DNA of 40,641 nucleotides from positions 1 through 40,641 of IMG/VR virus record IMGVR_UViG_3300008085_000056, one strand, 5' to 3'. The stretch's first letter is position 1, and every line of letters begins with the position of its first letter. The position numbers were made by a program, and so were the translations under genes. Of this stretch, positions 4,876 through 40,641 are shown in pieces. A model generated the notes under the pieces. It ran no database searches, was not told the DNA's origin, and saw only the letters and a list, made by a program, of their open reading frames with translations. This DNA comes from a virus. Its lineage: Duplodnaviria > Caudoviricetes.

Positions 4876-6528
4876 ATGCCTGAATATTCACAGAAACATG
4901 TTTTAAAAGACGAAGCTTTTGTTGCAAAAGTAAACTATACCAATGCAGAATTACTTCGAAAAATAGAATTAGATGAACCAATCTTCTTAACAGTTTTATT
5001 ACAAGCATATGATAAAAAAAATGCTAATGGTAGGATATATCCCAAAGATGTTTTAACTCGTGAAGTTCAAAAATATCAAAAGCTTATAAAACAAAATACT
5101 GCTATTGGAGAATTAGACCACCCTTGCTTTGATGAAAACGTTGATATATTAACATTAGACGGGTGGAAACCGATTGTCGATATTTCCGAAGATGAAGTAG
5201 TATTAACATTTAATATGGATACCAAAAAATATGAATATCAACATATAACAGAAAAAATTGTTGAACATCACGTGGGTAATATGATTAGATTAAAACATAA
5301 AACGTTAAATATGTTAGTAACACCAAATCATAAATTTGTATTAAAAGGTAGAAGTGATAGTACACAAAAAGATAAATATGAATTGATTGAAGCGAGAGAA
5401 TTACAAAATAATAGAAAAAAACGATTGATTAGAACAGAGTCCAATTGGGACGGGTTTCATAAAGAAGTTTGGACATTGGGTGATATTTCTATACCAATGA
5501 GTGATTTTGTTGCATTTATGGGAATATTTTTATCGGAAGGTCATACATCAAATTATACTGATAATGGACATTATACATTTGGGATATCTCAGAAAAAAAG
5601 TAATAATGTTATTAAAATAAAGGAATTATTAGATAGATTACCATTCAATTTTTCATATAGTGGTAATATGTTTACAGCAAATAATAAAAAAATGTGGACT
5701 TATTTAAAACAGTTTGGACAAGCATATGATAAATTTATACCTGCTGATTTAAAATTATTAAATCCTAATTATTTACAAATATTGTTTGATTGGCTGATGA
5801 TAGGTGATGGGACAAGAATTAACACGGTAAAAAATAATGTTAACCGTTATTATAGTACTTCAAAAAAATTAATAGATGATGTACAAGAAATATTATTTAA
5901 ATTAGGTTTTGCATCATCTATAGTAATACAAAAACAAAAAGATAGATTTATTGAAGGTAGATTAATAAAAGAAGAAAATTCTAATGATATATATCGTTTG
6001 ACAGTATATAAAACCAATTATTTACATAATGATAAAAGAAATCTATCCATAACGGAAGAAGAATATGATGGTAAAATATATTGTGTTACAGTTCCTAATC
6101 ATACTATCGTTGTGCGAGATAATCAAAATAAAAGTATTATAATTTCAGGTAATTCTGAAAGAGATATTATCGAGTATAAAACTGCATCACATAAGATAAA
6201 CAAATTGTGGTGGGAAGGAAGTGAATTATGGGGTACTGTTGAAATTTTATCAGGAAAACATTTTCCGATGGCTAATATTTTAAGAGGGTGCTTATTACAT
6301 AATATCCCGATAGGGTTCTCTTCAAGAGGATTAGGTTCTGAATTAGATATGGGTAATGATACTGTACAAGTTGATGAAGATTTTGATTTAATAGGATGGG
6401 ATGCAGTAACACAACCTTCAACATTTGGTGCATTTGCATATATTGCCGAATCAACACAAAAAGCACGTGATAAATATGCAAGTAAAATGAAATCAATAAA
6501 CAAATTAATCTATCAAATTTTAAATTAA
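4876..6528 (+). CDS. prohead core protease (T4 gp21-like) interrupted by an intein
   Basis: KNANGRIYP, GELDHP, ASHKI, IGFSSRGLGS, WDAVTQPSTFGA. Confidence 0.93.
   Translation: MPEYSQKHVLKDEAFVAKVNYTNAELLRKIELDEPIFLTVLLQAYDKKNANGRIYPKDVLTREVQKYQKLIKQNTAIGELDHPCFDENVDILTLDGWKPIVDISEDEVVLTFNMDTKKYEYQHITEKIVEHHVGNMIRLKHKTLNMLVTPNHKFVLKGRSDSTQKDKYELIEARELQNNRKKRLIRTESNWDGFHKEVWTLGDISIPMSDFVAFMGIFLSEGHTSNYTDNGHYTFGISQKKSNNVIKIKELLDRLPFNFSYSGNMFTANNKKMWTYLKQFGQAYDKFIPADLKLLNPNYLQILFDWLMIGDGTRINTVKNNVNRYYSTSKKLIDDVQEILFKLGFASSIVIQKQKDRFIEGRLIKEENSNDIYRLTVYKTNYLHNDKRNLSITEEEYDGKIYCVTVPNHTIVVRDNQNKSIIISGNSERDIIEYKTASHKINKLWWEGSELWGTVEILSGKHFPMANILRGCLLHNIPIGFSSRGLGSELDMGNDTVQVDEDFDLIGWDAVTQPSTFGAFAYIAESTQKARDKYASKMKSINKLIYQILN
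5125..6153 (+). mobile_element. intein with LAGLIDADG-type homing endonuclease (343 aa) in prohead protease
   Basis: Begins CFDENVDILTLDGWK after GELDHP; block B VTPNHKF; endonuclease motifs FMGIFLSEG and WLMIGDG; ends IYCVTVPNH...ISGN followed by Ser. Confidence 0.92.
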
Positions 6529-28975: not shown

Positions 28976-31900
28976 ATGAACAAAAAGATAGATGGTAAAA
29001 AACTATTAGGAGATTTCCAATTTATTAGTGGATATTCCAAATACAACGAAGAAATACAAAAAAAAGAAACGTGGTTGGATTCAACAAAACGTGTGATGGG
29101 GATGCACTATATTAAATATAAAGATAAGATAGATAGTAATCCAAAACTAAAAGAATTATTTGATTTTGCACATAGTGCTTATGATGACCAATTGGTATTA
29201 GCATCTCAGAGAAGTCTTCAATATGGTGGTGAACCTACATTAAGAAAGCAGATGCGAATTTATAACTGTGCCGTAACATATTTAGATAGAATTAGAGCAT
29301 TTCAAGAGATTATGTTCATGCTCATGATGGGTTGTGGTGTTGGATTTTCAGCACAAACAAAACACATTGCTAAATTGCCCAAATTATCTGCTCGTAATAA
29401 AGGAACTAAAACTTATATTGTACCTGATACATCAGAAGGTTGGGCGGACTCGTTTGGTGTATTACTATCATCATATGTTGCAGAAGGGTATGATACTACA
29501 TTCCCCGAATATCAAGGATATAAAGTATATTTCGATTACTCTCTAGTAAGACCCGAAGGTGCTTATATTACAGGTGGATTTAAAGCACCGAGTCATAAAG
29601 GGTTGAAAAAATCCATTGAAAAAGTACAAGATTTATTAGATAAAGAAGTATCCTTGTCAGTAAATGTTTCCGTCCCATTCCGTTCAATAGTAGCATATGA
29701 TGTTGTAATGCACATGAGTGATGCTGTACTATCGGGTGGATTAAGACGCAGCGCGACAATTTGTGTATTCTCATTTGATGATACCGAAATGATGAAAGCT
29801 AAAACAGGAGATTGGTATTTAACAAATCCTCAACGTGGGCGTTCTAATAATAGTGTGGCGTTATTAAGAGATACTGTTACGAGAGAACAATTCGATTTTA
29901 TAATAGAATCTACCAAACAATTCGGTGAACCTGCATTCGTATTTGTTGATGATGAAGACATACTTGTAAATCCATGTGTTACTTCCGATACTACGGTCAA
30001 AACTACTGAGGGTACTAAATTGGTCAAAGATTTGATTGGTAAACCGTTTAATGCTATTGTCGATGGGTCGGTTTATAAATCTTTATCAAATGGGTTTTGG
30101 AAAACTGGTACTAAACCCGTGTATCAATTAGAAACTAAAAAAGGTTTTAAAATAAAAGCCACTGGAAATCACCAATTCCAATATAAATTAAATGATAAAG
30201 ATGATTATAAATGGGAAGAGTTATCTAATATCCCGTTAAAATCTAAAATCAGGTTGAATGACCATACCGTATATAATTCGGAATTACAAATAGATTCGGA
30301 GTTTGAACGGGGGTGGGCTATAGGAAGTTTAATTGGTGATGGTACATTCATCGATAACAGCGCACATTTATGTTATTGGGGTGATGTAGAAGAATTGAAT
30401 GTAGCTAAAACCATATTGAATTCTCATTTCAAGTCGTACGATAAATTAAAAGTTGGTACTACATTTGAAGATAAAACTACATTTTCATCCAAAAAATTGC
30501 AAATGTTAGCTCAGAAATTGAATATAATACGTGGTAATAAAATTTTAAATTCAACGGTTGAAACTCAATCGGATAACTTTATTAAAGGGGTATTACGAGG
30601 ATATTTCGATTCAGATGGGAGTGTTCAAGGTACACAAGAAAAAGGAGTATCGATACGATTAACATCTATAGAATTACAAAATTTAGAAATTGTACAACGT
30701 ATGCTTTTACGATTTGGTATTATGAGTTCTATTTATAAAAATAGAAGAATAGAACAACTGAGAGAACTACCAGATGGACGTGGTGGTACAAAGGAATATT
30801 TGTGTAAGCATATACACGAATTAGTTATCTCCAAACAAAGTTTAAAAAAATTCAATGATATAATTGGTTTTTTTAATAAAGATAAATCAGAAAAATTGGT
30901 AGATTTACTATCTAAATATAAAAGACAGTTAAACAACGATAAATTTTATGATACAGTTGTATCTATTAATTTGATTGGTTACGAAGATGTGTATGACGTT
31001 ACTATCGATGAAGTTCATGCGTTTGATGCGAATGGTTTTTATGCACATAATTGTGTCGAAATATCGTTCAAACCTTTACACCATTTAACAAATGAATCTG
31101 GCTGGCAAACTTGTGTATCACATGATACTAAACTTATTACTAAAACAGGTATTGAAACTATTGGGAATCTTAGTGATAATAATTTATCTGCTGAAATTTG
31201 GAATGGTGAAAAATGGAGTCTAGTGACCCCCGTAAAAACAGGTGAAAATAAAAAATTATATAGAGTTCTGTTTGGTGATGGTTCATATTTAGATTGTACT
31301 GATAATCACACATTTTTGGTGAAAAATAGATTCGAAAAGACTTATCGAGAACTTGAAACTAAAGATTTAATCAAAGAATTAGTTAATACTAAATATACTT
31401 TGTCCGTGCCACGAGTCAATATTACATATGATAGTGGTATTCACGAAGAATATGCGTATGAATATGGATACATTTTAGGTGATGGGTGTGCAACAATTCA
31501 TCATAAAGACGTTGAATTGAAATATAGAACACCATTTGCATCATTATATGAGGATATAAATCTACCTCTAAGAGGTAATATTGGAACATCACAATTTAAT
31601 TCATACGGGACTAAATTCCATAATATATATTTTATAGATGTTGATAAAAAATTTAGTTTTGAATTAAAATATGATTATGGGCTTCCAAAAACAATATTTA
31701 CATGGGATAGAAATAGCATTATAAATTTTGTTGCAGGTTGGATAGATGCTGATGGTTCAGCACAAGGTAATGGTTGTAGATTATATGGTGAAGAACATAA
31801 ACTACGTGATGCCCAATTGTTATTGACTAAAATTGGTGTTAATTCATCAATTAATAAATTAGGTAACGTTGGTGATAAGACATCAATGAATTTAGTTAGA

Positions 31901-33466
31901 AAACGTGAATTATGGTATTTGCAAATAGCTGATACTAAAGATTTAAAATCGTATAGATTAAATTTAGAATCTAAATCAGTTAAAGCAAAAGGAAAATCAC
32001 AGACTATAAAAGATATAATTTTATTAGATGGTATCCACGATACATATTGTTTTACAGAAAATGAAAAACACCAAGGTGTTTTTAATAATGTATTAACAAA
32101 ACAATGTAACTTAACTGAAATCAATGGTTTACTATGTAAAACACGAGAAGACTTTTTACGTGCGTGTAAAGCTAGTGCAATCATTGGAACGTTTCAAGCA
32201 GGTTTTACATATGAACCATATTTAGGTAAAGTATCTCAAGAAATTATGGAACATGAAGCATTATTGGGATGTTCTATTACAGGATTCATGAATAATCCAA
32301 AAATATTATTTGATGAAGACTTGTTAAGAGAAGGTGCTAAACTCATATTGGAAGTGAATGAAATCGTTGCGGAAATGATTGGTATTAATCCAACCGCTCG
32401 TGCAACATGTACCAAACCATCAGGAAATGCATCTGTGATGTTAGGAACAACATCTGGTATTCATGGAGAACATTCAAAGCGTTATCTAAGACATAAACAA
32501 TTAAATAAGATGGATGAATATGGACAGTATTTATATTTAAGAAATCCCGAAATGTTTGAAGATTCTGTATGGAGTTCGACTAAATCTGATTGGTCTGTAG
32601 CATTCCCGATTGAAGCACCCGAACATTCAATATTTAATTCCGATTTAAAAGGAGTTAAATTATTAGAATATGTACTCAAAGTACAAAATTCTTGGGTAGA
32701 AGCAGGAACACGTGTTGAACGATGTGTTCATCCTAAACTTAGACATAATGTATCTAATACAATTAGTGTAGATAATTGGGATGAAGTGGCAGATTTTATA
32801 TTTGAACACAAAGATAAAATTACAGGTGTATCCTTATTAAGCGATTCGGGTGATAAAGATTATAATCAAGCACCTTATACAGCGGTTTATACTCCAAAAG
32901 AGATGTTGAAAGAATATGGTGATAGTGTCGTATTCGCTTCAGGATTGATTGTAGATGGGTTAAAAGCATTTGATAATAACTTATGGTTAGCATGTGATAC
33001 TGCGATGGGTATAGGCTTAAAATTATCTTATACTAATTCAGAAGTAGAAAACATTATTAACAAACCATTTGAAAATAATGATGAACGACTACGATACATT
33101 GAAGACCTTTGGGTCAATTTAGGTATTAAGCGTAGAATTGCATCTAAATTAGCAAAAACCGATGAGTTACCAACAGTATACGAGTACAAAGAATACTTAG
33201 ATAATGTTATACTATCAGATACATTTAATGGTGCAATGAAAAAAGATTGGATTAGAAGATTTAAATCATTTGCAAATAAATATCTCAAAGATGATAAGAA
33301 AAAAACTTCATATCTACTAAAAGATGTTTACAATTGGCATAAATGGTCTAGAATTACTGCAAACTTAGAACCAATCGATTGGTCTTCGTTGGATATTCAA
33401 CCTCAATATACAGATATTGATACGTTGGGTGCTATTGCATGTAGCGGTGGCGCATGTGAAATCTAA
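28976..33466 (+). CDS. nrdJ: ribonucleotide reductase, probably class II (B12-dependent, monomeric NrdJ/RTPR type), with two inteins; about 806 aa after splicing
   Basis: YNCA, GCGVGFS, GGLRRSA, RSNNS, GEP, NP/CVE, CNLTEIN, KPSGNAS, C-terminal ACSGGACEI; no beta-subunit gene adjacent. Confidence 0.8.
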   Translation: MNKKIDGKKLLGDFQFISGYSKYNEEIQKKETWLDSTKRVMGMHYIKYKDKIDSNPKLKELFDFAHSAYDDQLVLASQRSLQYGGEPTLRKQMRIYNCAVTYLDRIRAFQEIMFMLMMGCGVGFSAQTKHIAKLPKLSARNKGTKTYIVPDTSEGWADSFGVLLSSYVAEGYDTTFPEYQGYKVYFDYSLVRPEGAYITGGFKAPSHKGLKKSIEKVQDLLDKEVSLSVNVSVPFRSIVAYDVVMHMSDAVLSGGLRRSATICVFSFDDTEMMKAKTGDWYLTNPQRGRSNNSVALLRDTVTREQFDFIIESTKQFGEPAFVFVDDEDILVNPCVTSDTTVKTTEGTKLVKDLIGKPFNAIVDGSVYKSLSNGFWKTGTKPVYQLETKKGFKIKATGNHQFQYKLNDKDDYKWEELSNIPLKSKIRLNDHTVYNSELQIDSEFERGWAIGSLIGDGTFIDNSAHLCYWGDVEELNVAKTILNSHFKSYDKLKVGTTFEDKTTFSSKKLQMLAQKLNIIRGNKILNSTVETQSDNFIKGVLRGYFDSDGSVQGTQEKGVSIRLTSIELQNLEIVQRMLLRFGIMSSIYKNRRIEQLRELPDGRGGTKEYLCKHIHELVISKQSLKKFNDIIGFFNKDKSEKLVDLLSKYKRQLNNDKFYDTVVSINLIGYEDVYDVTIDEVHAFDANGFYAHNCVEISFKPLHHLTNESGWQTCVSHDTKLITKTGIETIGNLSDNNLSAEIWNGEKWSLVTPVKTGENKKLYRVLFGDGSYLDCTDNHTFLVKNRFEKTYRELETKDLIKELVNTKYTLSVPRVNITYDSGIHEEYAYEYGYILGDGCATIHHKDVELKYRTPFASLYEDINLPLRGNIGTSQFNSYGTKFHNIYFIDVDKKFSFELKYDYGLPKTIFTWDRNSIINFVAGWIDADGSAQGNGCRLYGEEHKLRDAQLLLTKIGVNSSINKLGNVGDKTSMNLVRKRELWYLQIADTKDLKSYRLNLESKSVKAKGKSQTIKDIILLDGIHDTYCFTENEKHQGVFNNVLTKQCNLTEINGLLCKTREDFLRACKASAIIGTFQAGFTYEPYLGKVSQEIMEHEALLGCSITGFMNNPKILFDEDLLREGAKLILEVNEIVAEMIGINPTARATCTKPSGNASVMLGTTSGIHGEHSKRYLRHKQLNKMDEYGQYLYLRNPEMFEDSVWSSTKSDWSVAFPIEAPEHSIFNSDLKGVKLLEYVLKVQNSWVEAGTRVERCVHPKLRHNVSNTISVDNWDEVADFIFEHKDKITGVSLLSDSGDKDYNQAPYTAVYTPKEMLKEYGDSVVFASGLIVDGLKAFDNNLWLACDTAMGIGLKLSYTNSEVENIINKPFENNDERLRYIEDLWVNLGIKRRIASKLAKTDELPTVYEYKEYLDNVILSDTFNGAMKKDWIRRFKSFANKYLKDDKKKTSYLLKDVYNWHKWSRITANLEPIDWSSLDIQPQYTDIDTLGAIACSGGACEI
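29975..31051 (+). mobile_element. intein 1 of RNR with LAGLIDADG endonuclease (359 aa)
   Basis: CVTSDTTV start after NP, ATGNHQF, IGSLIGDG, LRGYFDSDG, ends VYDVTI...YAHN then Cys. Confidence 0.93.
31112..32104 (+). mobile_element. intein 2 of RNR with LAGLIDADG endonuclease (331 aa), C-terminal Gln
   Basis: CVSHDTKL start, CTDNHTF, YGYILGDG, VAGWIDADG, ends TYCFTE...VLTKQ then CNLTE. Confidence 0.9.
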
Positions 33467-33986: not shown

Positions 33987-34244
33987 ATGAAAGATTTGAA
34001 TATTATGTATAAAGAATCACCCAAATTTCCCACATGGGAAAAGATTGAAGGTATTGGTGTACTCCCAGATAAACAAGAAATTAAAATTTACTACAATGAA
34101 TACGTGGCAAATTTGGGTGATTTAATGGAAGATTTTATTAAGCACCAATCAAAACCATTTTGGAAACGAAATTATTATCATATCTACTTATCTAAGATAT
34201 ACAAAGATATGCTTAATAAAATTGAACTTAGACATGGTATTTAA
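33987..34244 (+). CDS. hypothetical protein
   Basis: 85 aa ORF ending just before the first palindromic site. Confidence 0.6.
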   Translation: MKDLNIMYKESPKFPTWEKIEGIGVLPDKQEIKIYYNEYVANLGDLMEDFIKHQSKPFWKRNYYHIYLSKIYKDMLNKIELRHGI

Positions 34245-34251
34245 TTGGTTA

Positions 34252-34373
34252 TAACGTTTTGCATATACCCGAATGGGGATTACGAAGCAATAACTATCAA
34301 TTAACAATGAATATTAACCGAAGTACAAAGTTACATTTCAGCACTAAACCCCTCTTTTTGGTATATGCTGTTA
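34252..34373. repeat. attC-like site S1 (122 bp)
   Basis: TAAC gtttt gcatatacc ... ggtatatgc t GTTA. Confidence 0.75.
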
Positions 34374-34422
34374 TAGCCAGTGCTTCTTTCAACGGAATTA
34401 TTAACTTTTAAATAATAAACAA

Positions 34423-34764
34423 ATGAAATTAAAATCAAGATTCAAAAAGGCTTTATTTGCTTTCTTCAAAGAGGAAATATTAAGCTCTGTTGGTTACAAT
34501 CAACCAATGCAAACTATTCAGCACATTTGTAAAGAAATGCGAATGACTGAAATCCGTTCTGAAATATTATTATCGGATGTAGGTAGTGAACGATACGGGC
34601 TACCTGCAAATGTGGTTTATGAAAAATCACTTGAAGAAGCAAGAAGAAGGTTGTTTGAAGAAAGTATGAAGTTTATTCAAATAGATGAAAAATCTGTTAT
34701 TGACCCACACATATATCCGACCAGAGCAATTAAAGTAAGCCTTTTTGTAGGTGTACGCTCTTAG
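34423..34764 (+). CDS. cassette A hypothetical protein
   Basis: 113 aa; segment ends gttatagccagtgct (34370) and agcattggctataac (34777) are complementary at 14/15. Confidence 0.75.
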   Translation: MKLKSRFKKALFAFFKEEILSSVGYNQPMQTIQHICKEMRMTEIRSEILLSDVGSERYGLPANVVYEKSLEEARRRLFEESMKFIQIDEKSVIDPHIYPTRAIKVSLFVGVRS

Positions 34765-34773
34765 CATTGGCTA

Positions 34774-34900
34774 TAACGTAAAAGGCTATGTGTAGTGCCT
34801 TTTTCAAATTACGTACTAACTTAATTAAAAGTAGAAATGATGAATACAGAACAGAACTCCGATAACCCACAGAGTCAGCAATTAAATATAGCCGATGTTA
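34774..34900. repeat. attC-like site S2 (127 bp)
   Basis: TAAC gtaaaa ggctatgt ... atatagcc gat GTTA. Confidence 0.7.
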
Positions 34901-35049
34901 TGGTTGGTTTTTTAGAAATGAAAGCGAAAGAGCATAAATGTAAACCAAGTGAATTAAATATAGGATATTACGAAGGTGAAGCATTTCTTTATAAGACATA
35001 TTACGACAAATATCACGAAACACAAGTAGCTTGGGAGAGCAAGATTTAA
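34837..35049 (+). CDS. cassette B hypothetical protein (starts inside S2)
   Basis: 70 aa; ends gttatggttggtttt and aaaattagccataac pair at 12/15 plus 3 G-T. Confidence 0.7.
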   Translation: MMNTEQNSDNPQSQQLNIADVMVGFLEMKAKEHKCKPSELNIGYYEGEAFLYKTYYDKYHETQVAWESKI

Positions 35050-35081
35050 TAACTGGTGAAGTCACTCGTTAAAATTAGCCA

Positions 35082-35201
35082 TAACGGTTATAAATAAAAG
35101 CAGTATGAAAGAAAAGATAAAAGATTATATAAGGCAGTATGTTAAAGGTGGCTACACACTTGATGAAGTAGCAGACGATATATTACTTTTATTTAGTGTT
35201 A
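35082..35201. repeat. attC-like site S3 (120 bp)
   Basis: TAAC ggtta taaataaaagcagtat ... atattacttttattta gt GTTA. Confidence 0.75.
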
Positions 35202-35284
35202 GCAAATCTGCTAATACCGAAAATGAAATAAATGTGGATGACCCGAATGCACCTTGGAACTGGAAAAATAGTAGTGAACTTTAG
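35105..35284 (+). CDS. cassette C small protein, 59 aa (not in ORF track; starts inside S3)
   Basis: MKEKIKDYIRQYVKGGYTLDEVADDILLLFSVSKSANTENEINVDDPNAPWNWKNSSEL; ends gttagcaaatctgcta and tagctgtttactaac are partly complementary. Confidence 0.6.
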   Translation: MKEKIKDYIRQYVKGGYTLDEVADDILLLFSVSKSANTENEINVDDPNAPWNWKNSSEL

Positions 35285-35292
35285 CTGTTTAC

Positions 35293-35418
35293 TAACGTTT
35301 TTGGGCTTTGTGTCCGTTGGCGACTTAAACCACAAATGTTAAATTGAAAGACGAATATTGATATGAGCAAAAAGTTGAATTGAAAGACGAAACCACCAAT
35401 GGCACAAATAATGTGTTA
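35293..35418. repeat. attC-like site S4 (126 bp)
   Basis: TAAC gtttttgggc tttgtgtccgttgg ... ccaatggcacaaa taatgt GTTA. Confidence 0.7.
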
Positions 35419-35640
35419 ACATCAACCTTTTCTTTCAACGAAAAGGTTGCTTGGGATAGTCATTTTGGTTATGAGATTGGATATTTTTTAGGCGAAGGAC
35501 ACGTTTATGAAACATACTTAATTGATGTTAAAACTGGCGTTGTTCACGAGCCTACTTGTTATCCTAAATCGGAAATTCATAAATACTCAAACGAGTTGAT
35601 TGATAAACTCGCTAAAAAATATGATTATGAAAAACGTTAA
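35380..35640 (+). CDS. cassette D hypothetical protein (starts inside S4; possibly damaged at both ends)
   Basis: 86 aa from TTG; an out-of-frame ATG at 35363; stop codon lies inside S5. Confidence 0.6.
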   Translation: MKDETTNGTNNVLTSTFSFNEKVAWDSHFGYEIGYFLGEGHVYETYLIDVKTGVVHEPTCYPKSEIHKYSNELIDKLAKKYDYEKR

Positions 35641-35754
35641 ATGTATGAAATGTAGGCGAATAGGAACTACTACCTTATCCACATGCGCAAACTAAATAGA
35701 AAGTAGAAAAGTATAAACCTGCACTGAACCACCTATATTTTATACATATTGTTA
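35632..35754. repeat. attC-like site S5 (123 bp, degenerate AAAC core)
   Basis: aAAC gttaa atgtatgaaatgtagg ... cctatattttatacat att GTTA; arms closely resemble S7. Confidence 0.75.
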
Positions 35755-35784
35755 GGCGTATGTGCTTTTAAATCGGAGGTAAAG

Positions 35785-35967
35785 ATGAAATACAAAGTTT
35801 ATATCGTAAAAACAGATGATGAAACCAAGGTGGCTACATTCATCGAAGCAGATTTTAATTGGGGTTGTGGTTTTGACACAATCGAAGATGCTAATGATAG
35901 GATTCGAAGCAGAGGTTATGACTATGTCCATTATGTAATACTCCCTTATGTGTACATGACTTCTTAG
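35785..35967 (+). CDS. cassette E hypothetical protein (60 aa from ATG 35785)
   Basis: GGAGGT 4 nt before ATG; ends gttaggcgtatgtgct and agcattacacctaac are complementary. Confidence 0.7.
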   Translation: MKYKVYIVKTDDETKVATFIEADFNWGCGFDTIEDANDRIRSRGYDYVHYVILPYVYMTS

Positions 35968-35976
35968 CATTACACC

Positions 35977-36102
35977 TAACGGTTCGCAGCTATATTTAGT
36001 TGCGGTTTTAGAAAACGAAAACTTTAAATAAAAACAGAATTATGTTAGAAAATGAAAACATAAATGAATCAGAAACTCCGCAATTGAATATAGGCACTGT
36101 TA
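35977..36102. repeat. attC-like site S6 (126 bp)
   Basis: TAAC ggttcgcag ctatatttagttgcgg ... ccgcaattgaatatag gcact GTTA; first 17 nt identical to S9. Confidence 0.8.
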
Positions 36103-36269
36103 GGCGTAGTGCTGATATGTGGTGGAAAACATTAACTCACGATACAAGAGTGAAATATGCAACAGAACAACTTTCCAAAAAAGGTCAGATTTTTAGATAT
36201 AACAATGATGGTTTAATTTCTGGATTCACTTTATCGGATGTGGTAGAGTTGTTCGAGCATCACGGCTAA
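36042..36269 (+). CDS. cassette F hypothetical protein (starts inside S6)
   Basis: 75 aa; stop codon is the TAA of the terminal TAAC; ends gttaggcgtagtgct and agcatcacggctaac pair at 12/15. Confidence 0.7.
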   Translation: MLENENINESETPQLNIGTVRRSADMWWKTLTHDTRVKYATEQLSKKGQIFRYNNDGLISGFTLSDVVELFEHHG

Positions 36270-36340
36270 CTTGTTTATATATGAACTAATGTGTAACATT
36301 TATAACTAAACTGTTACACACCAAAGGTTTAACGTTACAC
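36264..36340 (-). other. candidate attI-like primary recombination site
   Basis: Last TAAC is not followed by a long palindrome; minus strand reads tatataaacaaGTTAGCC; GTTACAC at 36313 and 36334 plus an inverted copy at 36291. Confidence 0.45.
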
Positions 36341-36422
36341 TTTAAAAATAAAAAATAAAAATTAATAAAAGGTATTTTATATTATGATTCTAATAAAAGA
36401 ACAAAATCCAACATGATGTAGA

Positions 36423-36953
36423 TTATGATAACTCTTCTTCTAATTGATTATCCACTGGTGTAGGTGTTGATGGAGAAGTGTTTGCTTCTTTAATTGCATT
36501 ATATTTAGATGATACATTACCTGTGTAAAAAATACCAATATTTACCCATGTAAATTCTACATATAACTCCATTGTTTTAATTATGTCATCCCATGACATA
36601 CCATTTAAAGTTTTATAAAGATAGTAACCAATTAATATAGTTACGAATACTTGAAACGTTTTAAAAATTTTATAAGATATTTGGGTTTTTTTATTTTTTA
36701 AATCATCGCGTTTAAATTCTGTTGCTTTGATGGTTATATACTTCGTAGCAGTATTAGCACTCATATATAATCCAATGTTTGTCCAAGTGAATTCAGACCA
36801 TAATTCAAATAAATCATAAAAAAATTTAAACTGATATTCATATAAAAAAATATTATATAAATATATAAATAAACAAAAAAAAGATACTACTATTTGTAAT
36901 ATAACAAACCAACGGAATTTAACCGATTCCATATTTACAAACAATGATTCCAT
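36423..36953 (-). CDS. membrane protein with internal duplication
   Basis: 176 aa; two repeats of a hydrophobic helix followed by EL(W/Y)xEFTWxNIGxxxxxNxxxKY. Confidence 0.7.
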   Translation of the reverse strand: MESLFVNMESVKFRWFVILQIVVSFFCLFIYLYNIFLYEYQFKFFYDLFELWSEFTWTNIGLYMSANTATKYITIKATEFKRDDLKNKKTQISYKIFKTFQVFVTILIGYYLYKTLNGMSWDDIIKTMELYVEFTWVNIGIFYTGNVSSKYNAIKEANTSPSTPTPVDNQLEEELS

Positions 36954-36973
36954 ATAATTAATTATATGAAATC

Positions 36974-37120
36974 TTATCTATTTGTTAAGTCTTCCTTTAT
37001 TTTTTTCTTTTCATCATCAGATAAATTTCTCCACGTGATTATTTCATTTATATTACGCTTACAACTGATACACACATCATCTACCAATTTACATATTTTT
37101 ATACACGGTGATGTTTCCAT
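36974..37120 (-). CDS. DUF1289-like four-cysteine small protein, 48 aa (not in ORF track)
   Basis: METSPCIKICKLVDDVCISCKRNINEIITWRNLSDDEKKKI matches SPCxxxC...CxxCxRxxxEIxxW. Confidence 0.8.
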   Translation of the reverse strand: METSPCIKICKLVDDVCISCKRNINEIITWRNLSDDEKKKIKEDLTNR

Positions 37121-37305
37121 TAGTTACTAAACAATTCCCACGTAGCTATAATTTCTGTACCAACTGTTGCACTAAATACATCAATTGCAACTTTAGATAA
37201 AACTACTTGAAAAGAATGACCTACCTTTACAGGTTCATCAAGATTTTTATACATTTTATGTAGTTGGTCAATAAATAATTTTTGGTGTGACATATGAATA
37301 TCCAT
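37120..37305 (-). CDS. hypothetical protein
   Basis: 61 aa; TAATG overlap with the DUF1289-like ORF. Confidence 0.5.
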   Translation of the reverse strand: MDIHMSHQKLFIDQLHKMYKNLDEPVKVGHSFQVVLSKVAIDVFSATVGTEIIATWELFSN

Positions 37306-37358
37306 TTAGTTATGTGATTACTCCTATAAGATACAAGTAAATAATTAAATTTACAAAT

Positions 37359-37946
37359 TTATTTTCTTCGGTTATTATAATGTTTTTGTGCAACATCGTT
37401 ATTTAACCCATAGTCAATGAGAACTAAATCCCCATTCCTATTTATACCCCATGACGATGGGCGTTCTAAATCTGTATATGATTTATCTACACCAAAAGAT
37501 GTTACATATTTATGGATATCACTTAGAAATTCATCTGATTCATCTGATAATTCTATTTGTTCAAAACTATAATTACCATGAATTGTATATATTAAATACT
37601 CAAATAAATACTTCAACGAAAATCCTGCTTTAGATTTGAATGAATCTCTGGTAACTTTTTTGCATTTTTCCATTATAAGAAAAGAATTATCGGATGCAGT
37701 ATAAATAATTTCAGCTAAAAAGGATGGTGCATATCCATCATTATATAAATTTGATTCAACTTCATTTTGAGCTATACCTTTAACATTTTTTGCAACTTTA
37801 ATTACATAATCACCTGCATCATAAACATCTCGCGAACTTCCTTGTGCCATTTTTTCAAACCACATGGAAGCGTGTCGTTTCAATTTGGCATATACTATTT
37901 GTTCTTGTTCAGGTATTTTACCTTTTACTATATCAACAATACTCAT
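37359..37946 (-). CDS. protein kinase-like (PKL fold) protein
   Basis: Gly loop QGSSRDVY, VIKVAK, QNEVE, LIMEK, DLERPSSWG catalytic-loop-like, LVLIDYG. Confidence 0.75.
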   Translation of the reverse strand: MSIVDIVKGKIPEQEQIVYAKLKRHASMWFEKMAQGSSRDVYDAGDYVIKVAKNVKGIAQNEVESNLYNDGYAPSFLAEIIYTASDNSFLIMEKCKKVTRDSFKSKAGFSLKYLFEYLIYTIHGNYSFEQIELSDESDEFLSDIHKYVTSFGVDKSYTDLERPSSWGINRNGDLVLIDYGLNNDVAQKHYNNRRK

Positions 37947-38668
37947 TACTTATTCTCCTTTGGTTCTATTATAGATAAAATTTGTTCCATCGAATCCACC
38001 ATTTCTTCACGTAATTTTTTAATTTTATTAGTTGCTCGTAATGTTTTAAACACTAAATTTTCTTCTGAGAAATTACCCTTGGATGATGATAATCCCGTTT
38101 GGCGTATCTGTTTGATTCTATTTTTCAATTTGATAGCTTCGTGATACTTGGTAAGAGGGTCTTCGGTATTAGAAAGATTATCAATAGCATTAACAAAAGA
38201 AGAAATATATAAATCTATTTTTTTTCTATTGATATATGGGATTTCACGATACTTCGGTTTTTTAATCCATACATTATCAATTAACGAATAGATGGCATCA
38301 GATTTATTATCATCATTTTTATCTTCTACATATAATTCTACTTCAACACCATAAATTTTGATATCATAATCGTTATTGAAATTAGCCTTTTTAGAATTAA
38401 CAAATGCTCTAATAGTTTTATTGTCACCTTGTATTTTTTCAAAGTCTAAAATAATATGTAAATCGATATCAGATTTATTATTCCATGTATAGTCCGCAGA
38501 ACTCCCTACAAATTTTATATCAATAATTTCAGCATCGATTTCCAATGTTTCATAAAATTTCTCTGCGATTAATAATAGTTTGTTACGGACATTGGATTTT
38601 AACCTATCCAATTCCCACAAGTCTGGATTTAATTCCTTCTTTGGTAATCCAAAAATTCTTCTCGGCAT
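37946..38668 (-). CDS. Pol beta-superfamily nucleotidyltransferase
   Basis: FVGSSADYTWNNKSDIDLHII (GS..DxD), third acid in EVELYVED, FSEENLVFKTLR. Confidence 0.8.
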   Translation of the reverse strand: MPRRIFGLPKKELNPDLWELDRLKSNVRNKLLLIAEKFYETLEIDAEIIDIKFVGSSADYTWNNKSDIDLHIILDFEKIQGDNKTIRAFVNSKKANFNNDYDIKIYGVEVELYVEDKNDDNKSDAIYSLIDNVWIKKPKYREIPYINRKKIDLYISSFVNAIDNLSNTEDPLTKYHEAIKLKNRIKQIRQTGLSSSKGNFSEENLVFKTLRATNKIKKLREEMVDSMEQILSIIEPKENK

Positions 38669-38680
38669 ATTATTTTATAG

Positions 38681-38709
38681 TTGACATTATTGATATAGTT
38701 TATTATATT
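38681..38709 (+). promoter_or_regulatory. sigma70-like promoter upstream of small genes and cassette array 2
   Basis: TTGACA-17 bp-TATATT. Confidence 0.6.
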
Positions 38710-38757
38710 AATTATAAGTAAACTGATATAAATTAAATATAATTTATATCAATAATT

Positions 38758-38958
38758 ATGACAACGCAAATAAGCAATAAATGTATACAAATTGAATCTG
38801 GTGAATGGCTTTATAAAGGTTGTTTCATCCAAGAATCGGTACACCCACGTCTGGTAGGTAAGTACGAAGTCTTTAAAAATAATAAATCACAAAGTCATAT
38901 TGGTAGATGTTACACATTTACCGAAGCTAAAAAATTATGCAGAGAAAATCATCAATAG
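38758..38958 (+). CDS. hypothetical protein
   Basis: 66 aa ORF directly after the promoter. Confidence 0.6.
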   Translation: MTTQISNKCIQIESGEWLYKGCFIQESVHPRLVGKYEVFKNNKSQSHIGRCYTFTEAKKLCRENHQ

Positions 38959-39369
38959 AACACTTAAAACACATAACACCTAAAACATCAAGGGATTTTA
39001 GGAGTGAAAATTATGGAACATCTAATGAACCACCACCATCTTGGGAAGTAGGTGGAATAAAAATAAAAATTGAGGATGTTCAAAAGTATCTTGATGAAAA
39101 TAATATACCAGTTATTGAAATTCCCATAAAGGATATATTTAATAAATGTGCTCATAGAGATAAAACAGATAAAGAAACATTAGATAGAAGTGAAAGGTCT
39201 GATTTGAAATTTCCAATAATAGTCTTAAAAAAGAATGGAAAATATCATATGGTTCTAGATGGACATCATAGATTATTGAAAGCTAAAAAATAATAATATT
39301 GATAAAATAAAAGCAAGAGTATTTAATTTAGAAGATGCTCCTGATGGATATAAAAAAGTGTTTTCATAA
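38937..39369 (+). pseudogene. ParB/Srx-like N-terminal domain protein, frameshifted in an A6 run near 39290
   Basis: FPIIVL...VLDGHHRLLKA; removing one A continues the frame as KNNNIDKIKARVFNLEDAPDGYKKVFS to stop 39369. Confidence 0.65.
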
Positions 39370-39385
39370 AAATTAATAAGTATAT

Positions 39386-39718
39386 ATGAAAAAATTTAAA
39401 TTAATAAGATTGAGAGATGGTAAGGGTTTGGTTGGTGACATAATAGAAATATATCCTGTTTTGGGAAAGGATGATAATAAAATATTGGGTGAGATTTCGA
39501 ATTCTTATACATCGGAGGATTATCCTAATTTATACAAAGAAATAAAAATAGGTCACTGTATCAATATATTATACGGAAATGATAATTGGATGACTACAAC
39601 TATTCTCGAAAAGTTAGAATATAAAAAAGATTATATTAAGTTCAAAACAGAATATAGCATATATGATTGTATTATATTGAAAGCTAAAAATAATAAAAGA
39701 TTATCTTTATGTCCTTAA
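39386..39718 (+). CDS. hypothetical protein
   Basis: 110 aa; WMTTTILE...IKFKTEYSIY. Confidence 0.6.
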   Translation: MKKFKLIRLRDGKGLVGDIIEIYPVLGKDDNKILGEISNSYTSEDYPNLYKEIKIGHCINILYGNDNWMTTTILEKLEYKKDYIKFKTEYSIYDCIILKAKNNKRLSLCP

Positions 39719-39802
39719 AAAATTATTAAAAATGTGTGGTGGGGTTTTTCTAAAATTTTCTAACACTAATGTTAATTCAGAGGATAGAACCACACTTACA
39801 CA

Positions 39803-39929
39803 TAACGTGCCGAGTATATGAAATGTAGGCGTTTAAAAGCACTTACATTTCAGATTAACAACAAAGGCAGATTAAGTTGAATAACGGTTAAAACAGCACT
39901 TACTCGCCTATATTTTATATACTGTGTTA
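39803..39929. repeat. attC-like site S7 (127 bp)
   Basis: TAAC gtgccg agtatatgaaatgtaggcg ... cgcctatattttatatact gt GTTA (19-bp stem, 2 G-T). Confidence 0.8.
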
Positions 39930-39947
39930 GCCACAGTTGTTTGAGCG

Positions 39948-40187
39948 ATGGACTTAACAAACGAAATAATCGAAAGAAATGGTTTTAAAAGAGTTAACAA
40001 TAGTATGTGGAAACTTGATTGTATAACTCTCCAAAATGCATATACTGATGAAGGTGGTGATATTCTTAATAAAATATTGACCACTAAAAAAGCATATAAA
40101 GTTTGTGTAAATGGTAAATATCTTCGAATGATTACTTATGAATACCAAATACATCAACTTTTAGAACGCAAACTGTGCGTTGGCTAA
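39948..40187 (+). CDS. cassette G hypothetical protein
   Basis: 79 aa; ends gttagccacagttg and taattgtggctaac pair at 12/14 plus 2 G-T. Confidence 0.72.
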   Translation: MDLTNEIIERNGFKRVNNSMWKLDCITLQNAYTDEGGDILNKILTTKKAYKVCVNGKYLRMITYEYQIHQLLERKLCVG

Positions 40188-40194
40188 TTGTGGC

Positions 40195-40273
40195 TAACGG
40201 TTGCAAATATGAGAAGTAAATTTTACCAATTAAAAATAAACAAATCAAAATTTATTTCTTATATTTGTTGTTA
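40195..40273. repeat. attC-like site S8 (79 bp)
   Basis: TAAC ggtt gcaaatatgagaagtaaatttt ... aaaatttatttcttatatttgt t GTTA (22-bp stem, 3 G-T). Confidence 0.8.
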
Positions 40274-40309
40274 TATACAGTTTAATTTTTATTTAAAACG
40301 AAAAAAATT

Positions 40310-40531
40310 ATGAATAACGAAAAAGTTGAAAATTACGCAAAATCTCTTGTTAAGCACGGTTTGTATTCAACAATTGATGAAGCACGAGCAGAATCTATTA
40401 GATGGCACAAAAAACAAGAACGTGGATTAGAAGAACCACTTCAATGTCCGCACCACCCTGATATAGAAACCACAGTAACACATACTGAAAATGGTGGGAT
40501 GATTGTTGAATACAAACTTCCTAAAAATTAA
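40310..40531 (+). CDS. cassette H hypothetical protein
   Basis: 73 aa; ends gttatatacagtttaattttta and taaaaattaaattgtatataac pair at 21/22. Confidence 0.75.
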   Translation: MNNEKVENYAKSLVKHGLYSTIDEARAESIRWHKKQERGLEEPLQCPHHPDIETTVTHTENGGMIVEYKLPKN

Positions 40532-40539
40532 ATTGTATA

Positions 40540-40631
40540 TAACGGTTCGCAGCTATGAGCAGTACAGCCTTGCACATAGTTTCAATTTAAACACAAAAGT
40601 TAATTGGCTGTATTGCTTATAGGTGCTGTTA
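40540..40631. repeat. attC-like site S9 (92 bp)
   Basis: TAAC ggttc gcagctatgagcagtacagcc ... ggctgtattgcttataggtgc t GTTA. Confidence 0.8.
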
Positions 40632-40641
40632 TGGGCAGTAC

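Follow-up and report, generated by a model that had tools for sequence, protein, structure and literature searches.

Between position 34252 and the end of a 40,641-nt stretch of the Caudoviricetes record IMGVR_UViG_3300008085_000056 (the whole stretch being called the window below), small open reading frames (ORFs) alternate with long imperfect palindromes that open with TAACG and close with TGTTA. The question raised by this locus is whether a phage can keep accessory genes as mobile cassettes, as the initial annotation proposed on the model of integrons, and by which enzyme they would be moved. We hold with reasonable confidence that the window carries two arrays of units, each made of one site and one gene, which are gained or lost at TAAC and are part of an integron-like system that Bacteroidota share with their phages, where a Xer-like recombinase absent from this fragment would act on a folded single strand. 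The window units are likely mobile cassettes, probably moved by the Xer-like recombinase. The proposal stands in that the units are cassette-like and that their gain or loss occurs at the AAC core. The units are not, however, cassettes of the classical attC/IntI type, and the system appears to work like an integron while its sites and the linked enzymes fall outside the attC and IntI families.

The nine sites initially described, S5 being the one with an AAACG core, were recovered with their sizes both by coordinates and by a covariance model trained on 40 sites, 6 of them from the window. This model finds exactly nine sites in the window, at 35-92 bits and including the three on which it was not trained, the next best score being 13.9 bits, and a site scanner applied to both strands of positions 1-33500 returned 0 sites. 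The rule of one small ORF per complete segment is also correct, though translation of ORFs B, C, D and F starts inside the loop of the site. Two features are new relative to the initial annotation, a lone end site at 36267 and the end of a further cassette type at 39729-39806, for which no matching left end was found within the window. The features are as follows (bits are covariance-model scores, and pairing is between the two ends of one segment).

34252..34373, + strand: site S1 (TAACG...TGTTA), 122 nt, opens unit A; 80 bits, in the training set.
34423..34764, + strand: ORF A, 113 aa, no family; segment ends pair 14/15.
34774..34900, + strand: site S2, 127 nt, opens unit B.
34837..35049, + strand: ORF B, 70 aa, start inside S2; ends pair 12/15, the 3 mismatches all being G-T.
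35082..35201, + strand: site S3, 120 nt, opens unit C; 35 bits, untrained.
35105..35284, + strand: ORF C, 59 aa, start inside S3; ends pair only with a gap.
35293..35418, + strand: site S4, 126 nt, opens unit D.
35380..35640, + strand: ORF D, 86 aa, TTG start inside S4; ends 7/15, unpaired; likely a worn unit.
35632..35754, + strand: site S5 (AAACG core), 123 nt, opens unit E.
35749..35967, + strand: ORF E, 72 aa from TTG (60 aa from the ATG at 35785); ends pair with a gap.
35977..36102, + strand: site S6, 126 nt, opens unit F; 70-90% like the sites of many other phages.
36042..36269, + strand: ORF F, 75 aa, start inside S6; ends pair 12/15.
36256..36290, + strand: lone end site TAAC-N5-TATAT without hairpin, TAAC at 36267; closes array 1, presumably attI-like.
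39729..39806, + strand: right end of a cassette type that is whole in other phages; 74-76% identity to unit ends in loci L050 and L027.
39803..39929, + strand: site S7, 127 nt, opens unit G; left edge of a 737-nt block missing in a variant.
39948..40187, + strand: ORF G, 79 aa; 16 unnamed homologues (56-95%); ends pair 12/15.
40195..40273, + strand: site S8, 79 nt, opens unit H; 88% like an array site of the jumbo phage LR756500; 44 bits, untrained.
40310..40531, + strand: ORF H, 73 aa; ends pair 21/22.
40540..40641, + strand: site S9 (to 40631, 92 nt) and the first 10 nt of its unit; 57 bits, untrained.

The most direct evidence for gain or loss of units comes from metagenome contigs of eight of the 24 runs listed as containing the stretch, which were compared with the window. 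A joint from 39801 to 40539 is present in two of the eight runs, X1 (side 24; this run may be the source sample) and X22, and it is not listed in the other six. In X22 it lies on a 331-nt contig, of which 124 nt match on one side and 103 nt on the other, with no differences and no other letters in between. The 737 nt skipped by the joint are exactly S7, unit G, S8 and unit H, and the joined ends share only ATAACG, which is too little for an assembly overlap or for homologous recombination. The cut is placed at TAAC since a cut at GTTA would have left S7 in the variant. Loose contig ends were found at 39803 in all eight runs and at 40539-40541 in four of the eight as listed. Two other joints, 39828 to 39908 and 39932 to 40540, were rejected, as other letters lie between their sides and they derive from related arrays of other genomes. 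In run X2, the contig across units G and H (40079-40568) has a depth of 19.9, compared with 42.5 for the left-hand contig, as expected of a mixed population, contig depth being a weak measure. In the same run, S7-like (39803-39934) and S8-like (40195-40273) sites are found on contigs with a depth of 2,400-2,700, against about 40 for the phage, so that far more abundant genomes in this sample carry the site family.

The same boundary is seen when different genomes are compared. Scanning metagenomes with a piece of S9 gave nine loci, and in one of them (L116) the last 103 nt of the window recur with 100% identity behind a different unit, where they open a unit whose 251-aa ORF resembles a DNA methyltransferase by sequence and is closed by its own paired end; L116 may be either another phage or another part of the window phage. 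Among the fetched loci, compared for shared blocks of at least 170 nt, six independent comparisons gave blocks, common to two phages, that stop at the next TAAC +3/+4; for example, L016 and L056 are 98% identical over 474 nt up to the next TAAC, and L026 and L028 are 96% identical over 7.3 kb and diverge at TAAC. These comparisons suggest that a unit is mostly a site plus its downstream gene, cut at TAAC. Restricting the comparison of homologues to detected-site pairs was uninformative, most of these being duplicate records. In a single 276-kb record (L052, L068), two arrays 50 kb apart share a 406-nt block of 86% identity that starts at TAAC, and a recombinase stands beside only one of them.

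The complementarity that the initial annotation reported between the two ends of the same segment was found with the same counts, and it exceeds what other pairs of ends give. Over 15 nt including the core, 14 positions match in units A and H and 12 in B, F and G; units C (8/15) and E (9/15) pair better once a gap is allowed (anchored scores 6 and 5), and the ends of unit D (7/15) do not pair. When the own ends of the eight segments were set against all 40,320 re-pairings, 52 matches were obtained against a mean of 29.1 without gaps over 10 nt (p=7.4e-5), and 56 against 14.3 with gaps (p=5.0e-5). The same holds in 121 distinct phage segments, with own-end pairing of 6.9 of 10 positions against 3.6, the best of 2,000 permutations reaching 4.0. 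In these segments the ends pair over 11 nt beyond GTTA, apart from a fixed mismatch at position 7. On the TAACG strand this mismatch reads G-T in 67 of the 83 well-paired phage segments (at least 7 of the 10 other positions matching; the 38 weaker segments are not counted) and in 20 of 21 segments from bacteria. In the folding model, the top strand of the predicted circular junction is more stable than the linear form in seven of the eight units.

The site family extends well beyond the window, a pattern derived from S6 retrieving 53 viral loci and one derived from S1 36 genome loci which, by record titles, comprise 32 Bacteroidota, 1 Planctomycetota and 3 without taxon. Its inner stem has 18 pairs, 17 of them with compensatory changes, and no bulge in the consensus. 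One of these pairs is G-T in 39 of 40 sites, and over the inner stem G-T exceeds A-C by 56:9 in the phage rows and 23:0 in the bacterial rows. The asymmetry of 2-4 nt beside one core, already pointed out in the initial annotation, is present in 214 of 224 sites, and a bulge of the 3' arm within 19 nt of GTTA in just one of 224. Genes are co-directional with the TAACG strand in 114 of the 121 phage segments, those of the window included, and run against it, which is the classical direction, in 22 of 23 bacterial segments, no paired end having been obtained from 13 of the 36 genome loci.

No tyrosine recombinase or remnant of one is present in the window, whether by family search or by tblastn (best E 0.16), as the initial annotation stated. 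Candidates were obtained from the related arrays, by a PF00589 search of 49 site-bearing viral records, five further loci being left out. Ten of the 49 gave a match: eight enzymes of about 265 aa (seven distinct, one with an early stop), one fragment and one unrelated 379-aa integrase. In all nine loci that hold it (two of them being one phage), the recombinase, whole or fragmentary, is found on the 3' side of the array and co-directional with it, in eight of them 234-361 nt past the last detected site, and its start falls 46-56 nt after a lone site resembling TAAC-N5-TATA. A matrix built from six such recombinase-linked end sites ranks 36267 first among the 389 TAAC words of the window; a second end site considered at 38974 scored negatively and was dropped. 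The array of LR756500 likewise closes with a lone TAAC, and this phage has kept 13 sites with an internally deleted recombinase gene. Three Bacteroidota loci (L089-L091) carry longer homologues (352-452 aa, about 40% identical), which head the arrays and point toward the cassettes.

The linked enzymes score below every NCBIfam cut-off. For TIGR02249 they reach 145-170 bits against a cut-off of 265, being below it in 6/6, with a match in two pieces in 5/6, and the stretch of the IntI insertion counts 28 residues in the linked enzyme and 76 in VchIntIA. Their best matches are XerA-like (NF040815, 168-190 bits for a cut-off of 220; PDB 4a8e, E=2.4e-32).

Compared with integrons, the arrays share the AAC/GTT cores, a folded site with an unpaired spacer and a variable loop, one gene per unit, the pairing of a unit's own ends, which in classical cassettes also extends beyond the core over 9-11 nt (PMC2727003), a hairpin-less end site beside a tyrosine recombinase (here in other phages), and exchange at the core of the TAACG-reading strand (the joint lying within ATAACG, with three blocks bounded by GTTA). 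The anatomy of attC, including its cut box, was described by Bouvier et al. (2009, PMC2727003), and the primer list of PMC9892861 (Table S3) has bottom strands of classical sites starting with TAACG for aadA7 and both PH101 sites. The window plus strand is thus the equivalent of the bottom strand, with the cut in the cut box of attC and the genes in the opposite orientation. Other features set the family apart, and the classical attC geometry does not fit it. Integron attC has two or three extrahelical bases on the R''-L'' arm, whereas the window family has none and shows conserved G-T wobbles instead; its spacer is offset by 2-4 nt; its end pairing covers 15 nt with a fixed mismatch rather than 9-11 nt; the linked enzyme, of about 265 aa, lacks the IntI insertion and is about 48 residues shorter there than VchIntIA; and a classical gene is read from attI toward attC, whereas 114 of 121 phage segments face the opposite way, toward the end site.

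These differences bear on whether the arrays are ordinary clusters of attC sites lacking integron-integrases (CALINs), which the phage would have taken from an integron of its host and which a host IntI would recombine in trans. Such clusters are already known in phages: Qi et al. (2023, PMC9892861) reported 17 in 10,705 phage genomes, as integrase-free clusters of virulent phages with methyltransferase cargo; the cores, the size range and the strand signature agree with attC bottom strands (PMC9892861), and the cut point falls in the equivalent box. Against this stand the 3' arm without extrahelical base, the spacer offset and the low TIGR02249 scores and short insertion stretch of the linked enzymes. 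In addition, IntI1 recombined five of the six phage sites tested by Qi et al., the exception being P12002L_attC1 of a Polaribacter phage, situated between two co-oriented methyltransferase genes (PMC9892861), and this site scores 25.3 bits under our covariance model, yet missed E<=0.01 in the whole-genome search. We thus regard ordinary CALINs as improbable. A still smaller probability is given to the hairpins being RNA elements, that is, mRNA structures for processing or translation control in front of small genes. The G-T-rich strand is indeed the mRNA strand in phages, and four ORFs start inside a site. The same G-T bias is found in bacteria, however, where the genes lie on the other strand, so that the bias goes with the site rather than with the transcript, as would be expected more of a folded DNA substrate than of an mRNA structure; a search with 4,227 Rfam families gave 0 window matches at E<=1; and the pairing of the two distant ends of a segment and the joints at TAAC would be left unexplained.

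A more serious contender, which we nevertheless find unlikely, is that the arrays are frozen relics of former cassettes, now immobile in the lineage of the window, the variant having arisen by a deletion led by microhomology or by UvsX, which this phage encodes. It would account for the lack of a recombinase past the end site of the window, the worn units C, D and E, the orphan end before S7, the 13 sites of LR756500 beside an internally deleted enzyme gene, and the absence of the catalytic domain from near-complete records (8/8). It does not readily account for a joint placed exactly on the conserved core with six shared letters, for an identical S9 in another context, or for the near-perfect ends kept by units A and H. 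The frequent loss of the enzyme may fit both supply in trans and frozen arrays.

Several observations weigh against the favoured reading of mobile cassettes moved by a Xer-like recombinase. No PF00589 match was found in 39 of the 49 site-bearing records, including all eight of those at least 90% complete, and what ties the enzyme to the sites is adjacency. The deleted form was listed in only two of the eight runs, at depths of 5.1 and 3.7, and it may equally represent a loss or a gain. Circular cassette junctions, which the initial annotation proposed to look for, were sought in the eight runs, all of them available as contigs, and none was seen; a joint from 35299 to 35197 in X2 was rejected as a circle, as the copy differs from unit C and the intervening letters were unread. 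Hairpins of the S9 type precede different genes in seven other contexts, two shared blocks begin at GTTA (L033/L039 and L034/L064) and one more ends there, which suggests that hairpins and genes may also be re-assorted by a route outside the proposed model, and the block starts at TAAC are partly imposed by the search pattern. Finally, units C, D and E are poorly paired, and the predicted gain in folding of the circular junction is below 1.5 kcal/mol in four of the seven units, with unit B being worse.

If the arrays are indeed mobile, the following scheme could be proposed. The TAACG strand, equivalent to the attC bottom strand, would fold when single-stranded during phage replication, and the recombinase would bind the core box and the inner stem and cut within TAAC at two sites. 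Within the released circle, an 11-bp outer stem with G-T at its position 7 would be rebuilt from the unit's own ends. Insertion would take place at a lone end site, for instance that at 36267, and would regenerate it, the newest unit being added at the 3' end of the array. Since the genes face the end site, their transcription would come from phage promoters lying upstream, translation often starting inside the site. The enzyme could be encoded elsewhere in the genome, 75% of which is unseen, or supplied by the host or by a co-infecting phage.

The virus record is linear and about 25% complete. Family scans identify terminase, portal, capsid, sheath, UvsX, helicase and ribonucleotide reductase genes in the window, which make it a fragment of a large T4-like phage, the closest cultured capsids being those of Mel-JY01 (38%) and Flavobacterium phage immuto (35%). 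The runs containing the stretch are labelled aquifer, cold spring and hot springs metagenome, with no RNA run among those listed, and the site family points to a host among the Bacteroidota. The covariance model gave 0 sites in the three T4-like relatives Mel-JY01, immuto and LR756508; no array was found in the capsid relatives L001-L006 or the reductase relatives L008-L013, and no close relative spanning the window arrays was found. ARAGORN found nothing in the window. An intein that contains a LAGLIDADG domain is present in the prohead protease (4876-6528), and two intein/LAGLIDADG stretches are present in the ribonucleotide reductase (28976-33466, 1,496 aa).

Around the arrays themselves, the 85-aa ORF at 33987-34255, before S1, terminates in TAATTGGTTATAAC, which resembles how units A and B end; no left end matching it was found, and the ORF is possibly an older worn unit. 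Directly past the end site, at 36289-36340, an inverted repeat TGTGTAAC...GTTACACA is followed by TAACGTTACAC, at the place where related phages begin the recombinase gene, and it could be a terminator, binding sites or a deletion scar. Between the two arrays, a 240-aa nucleotidyltransferase-like ORF (37946-38668, minus strand; PF01909, E=2.8e-4), through which relatives were sought with no locus obtained, adjoins a 195-aa ORF of phrog_4301. A 118-aa ORF of phrog_17560 (38937-39370) terminates in VLDGHHRLLKAKK, an end that we take to be ParB-like; this ORF apparently continues in a different frame past 39290, and its start resembles a worn form of the KTTIREFLNE-type leader found in the cassette genes of L116. 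Pfam and PHROGs gave no useful family for the eight cassette ORFs, a weak match of ORF G to Pox_VLTF3 (E=0.008, under the cut-off) was discarded, and the ESM Atlas scores for ORF A (0.80-0.82) were at chance level.

Among other tyrosine recombinase systems, the enzyme is closest to archaeal XerA, all its scores being under the curated cut-offs. In pdif modules, each module is flanked by short double-stranded XerC/XerD sites; the window sites differ from dif and pdif in being covarying hairpins of 79-127 nt in one orientation. The 'integrases' of the cultured Flavobacteriia phages Ingeline, Freya and Leef, taken as a sign of a temperate lifestyle (Bartlau et al., PMC8776804), are 33-38% identical to the array-linked enzyme and begin shortly after a lone GCTAAC, behind small co-oriented genes; no intact array was seen beside them in the 1.7-2.4 kb inspected. 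The initial annotation knew of no described system of this kind in large T4-like phages. We found no published description of the site family or its enzyme, most subscription papers lying outside the search, but attC clusters of phages are in print and include one site of the family. They were treated as attC for IntI, and end pairing, gene inversion and a Xer-like partner are not described in the parts of that paper cited here (PMC9892861). The cultured phage P12002L itself (L124, 14502-39245) has seven model sites at E<=0.01, several beside methyltransferase genes, of which Qi et al. tested two (PMC9892861). No recombinase of the linked family was found in P12002L, which makes it a ready system for testing recombinase supply in trans.

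Taken together, the chances seem about even that a second class of integron exists, defined by a short Xer-like recombinase without the IntI insertion and by folded single-stranded sites with G-T wobbles, and shared by Bacteroidota chromosomes and lytic phages, the phage cassettes being reversed to fit the phage's own transcription and enzyme-less phages, that of the window among them, still swapping cassettes by means of an enzyme in trans. In surveys made with IntegronFinder, complete integrons are almost absent from Bacteroidetes (PMC9024848). Since the sites are common in Bacteroidota and their phages and differ from attC in the features read by IntI, a whole cassette system may be missed there. 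Such a system would account mechanistically for the small accessory genes and methyltransferases that stand in runs in large phages. It would also offer a natural test of the way in which a tyrosine recombinase lacking the IntI insertion came to act on single-stranded hairpins. The window form with units G and H and the variant without them make a natural pair that places the exchange point.

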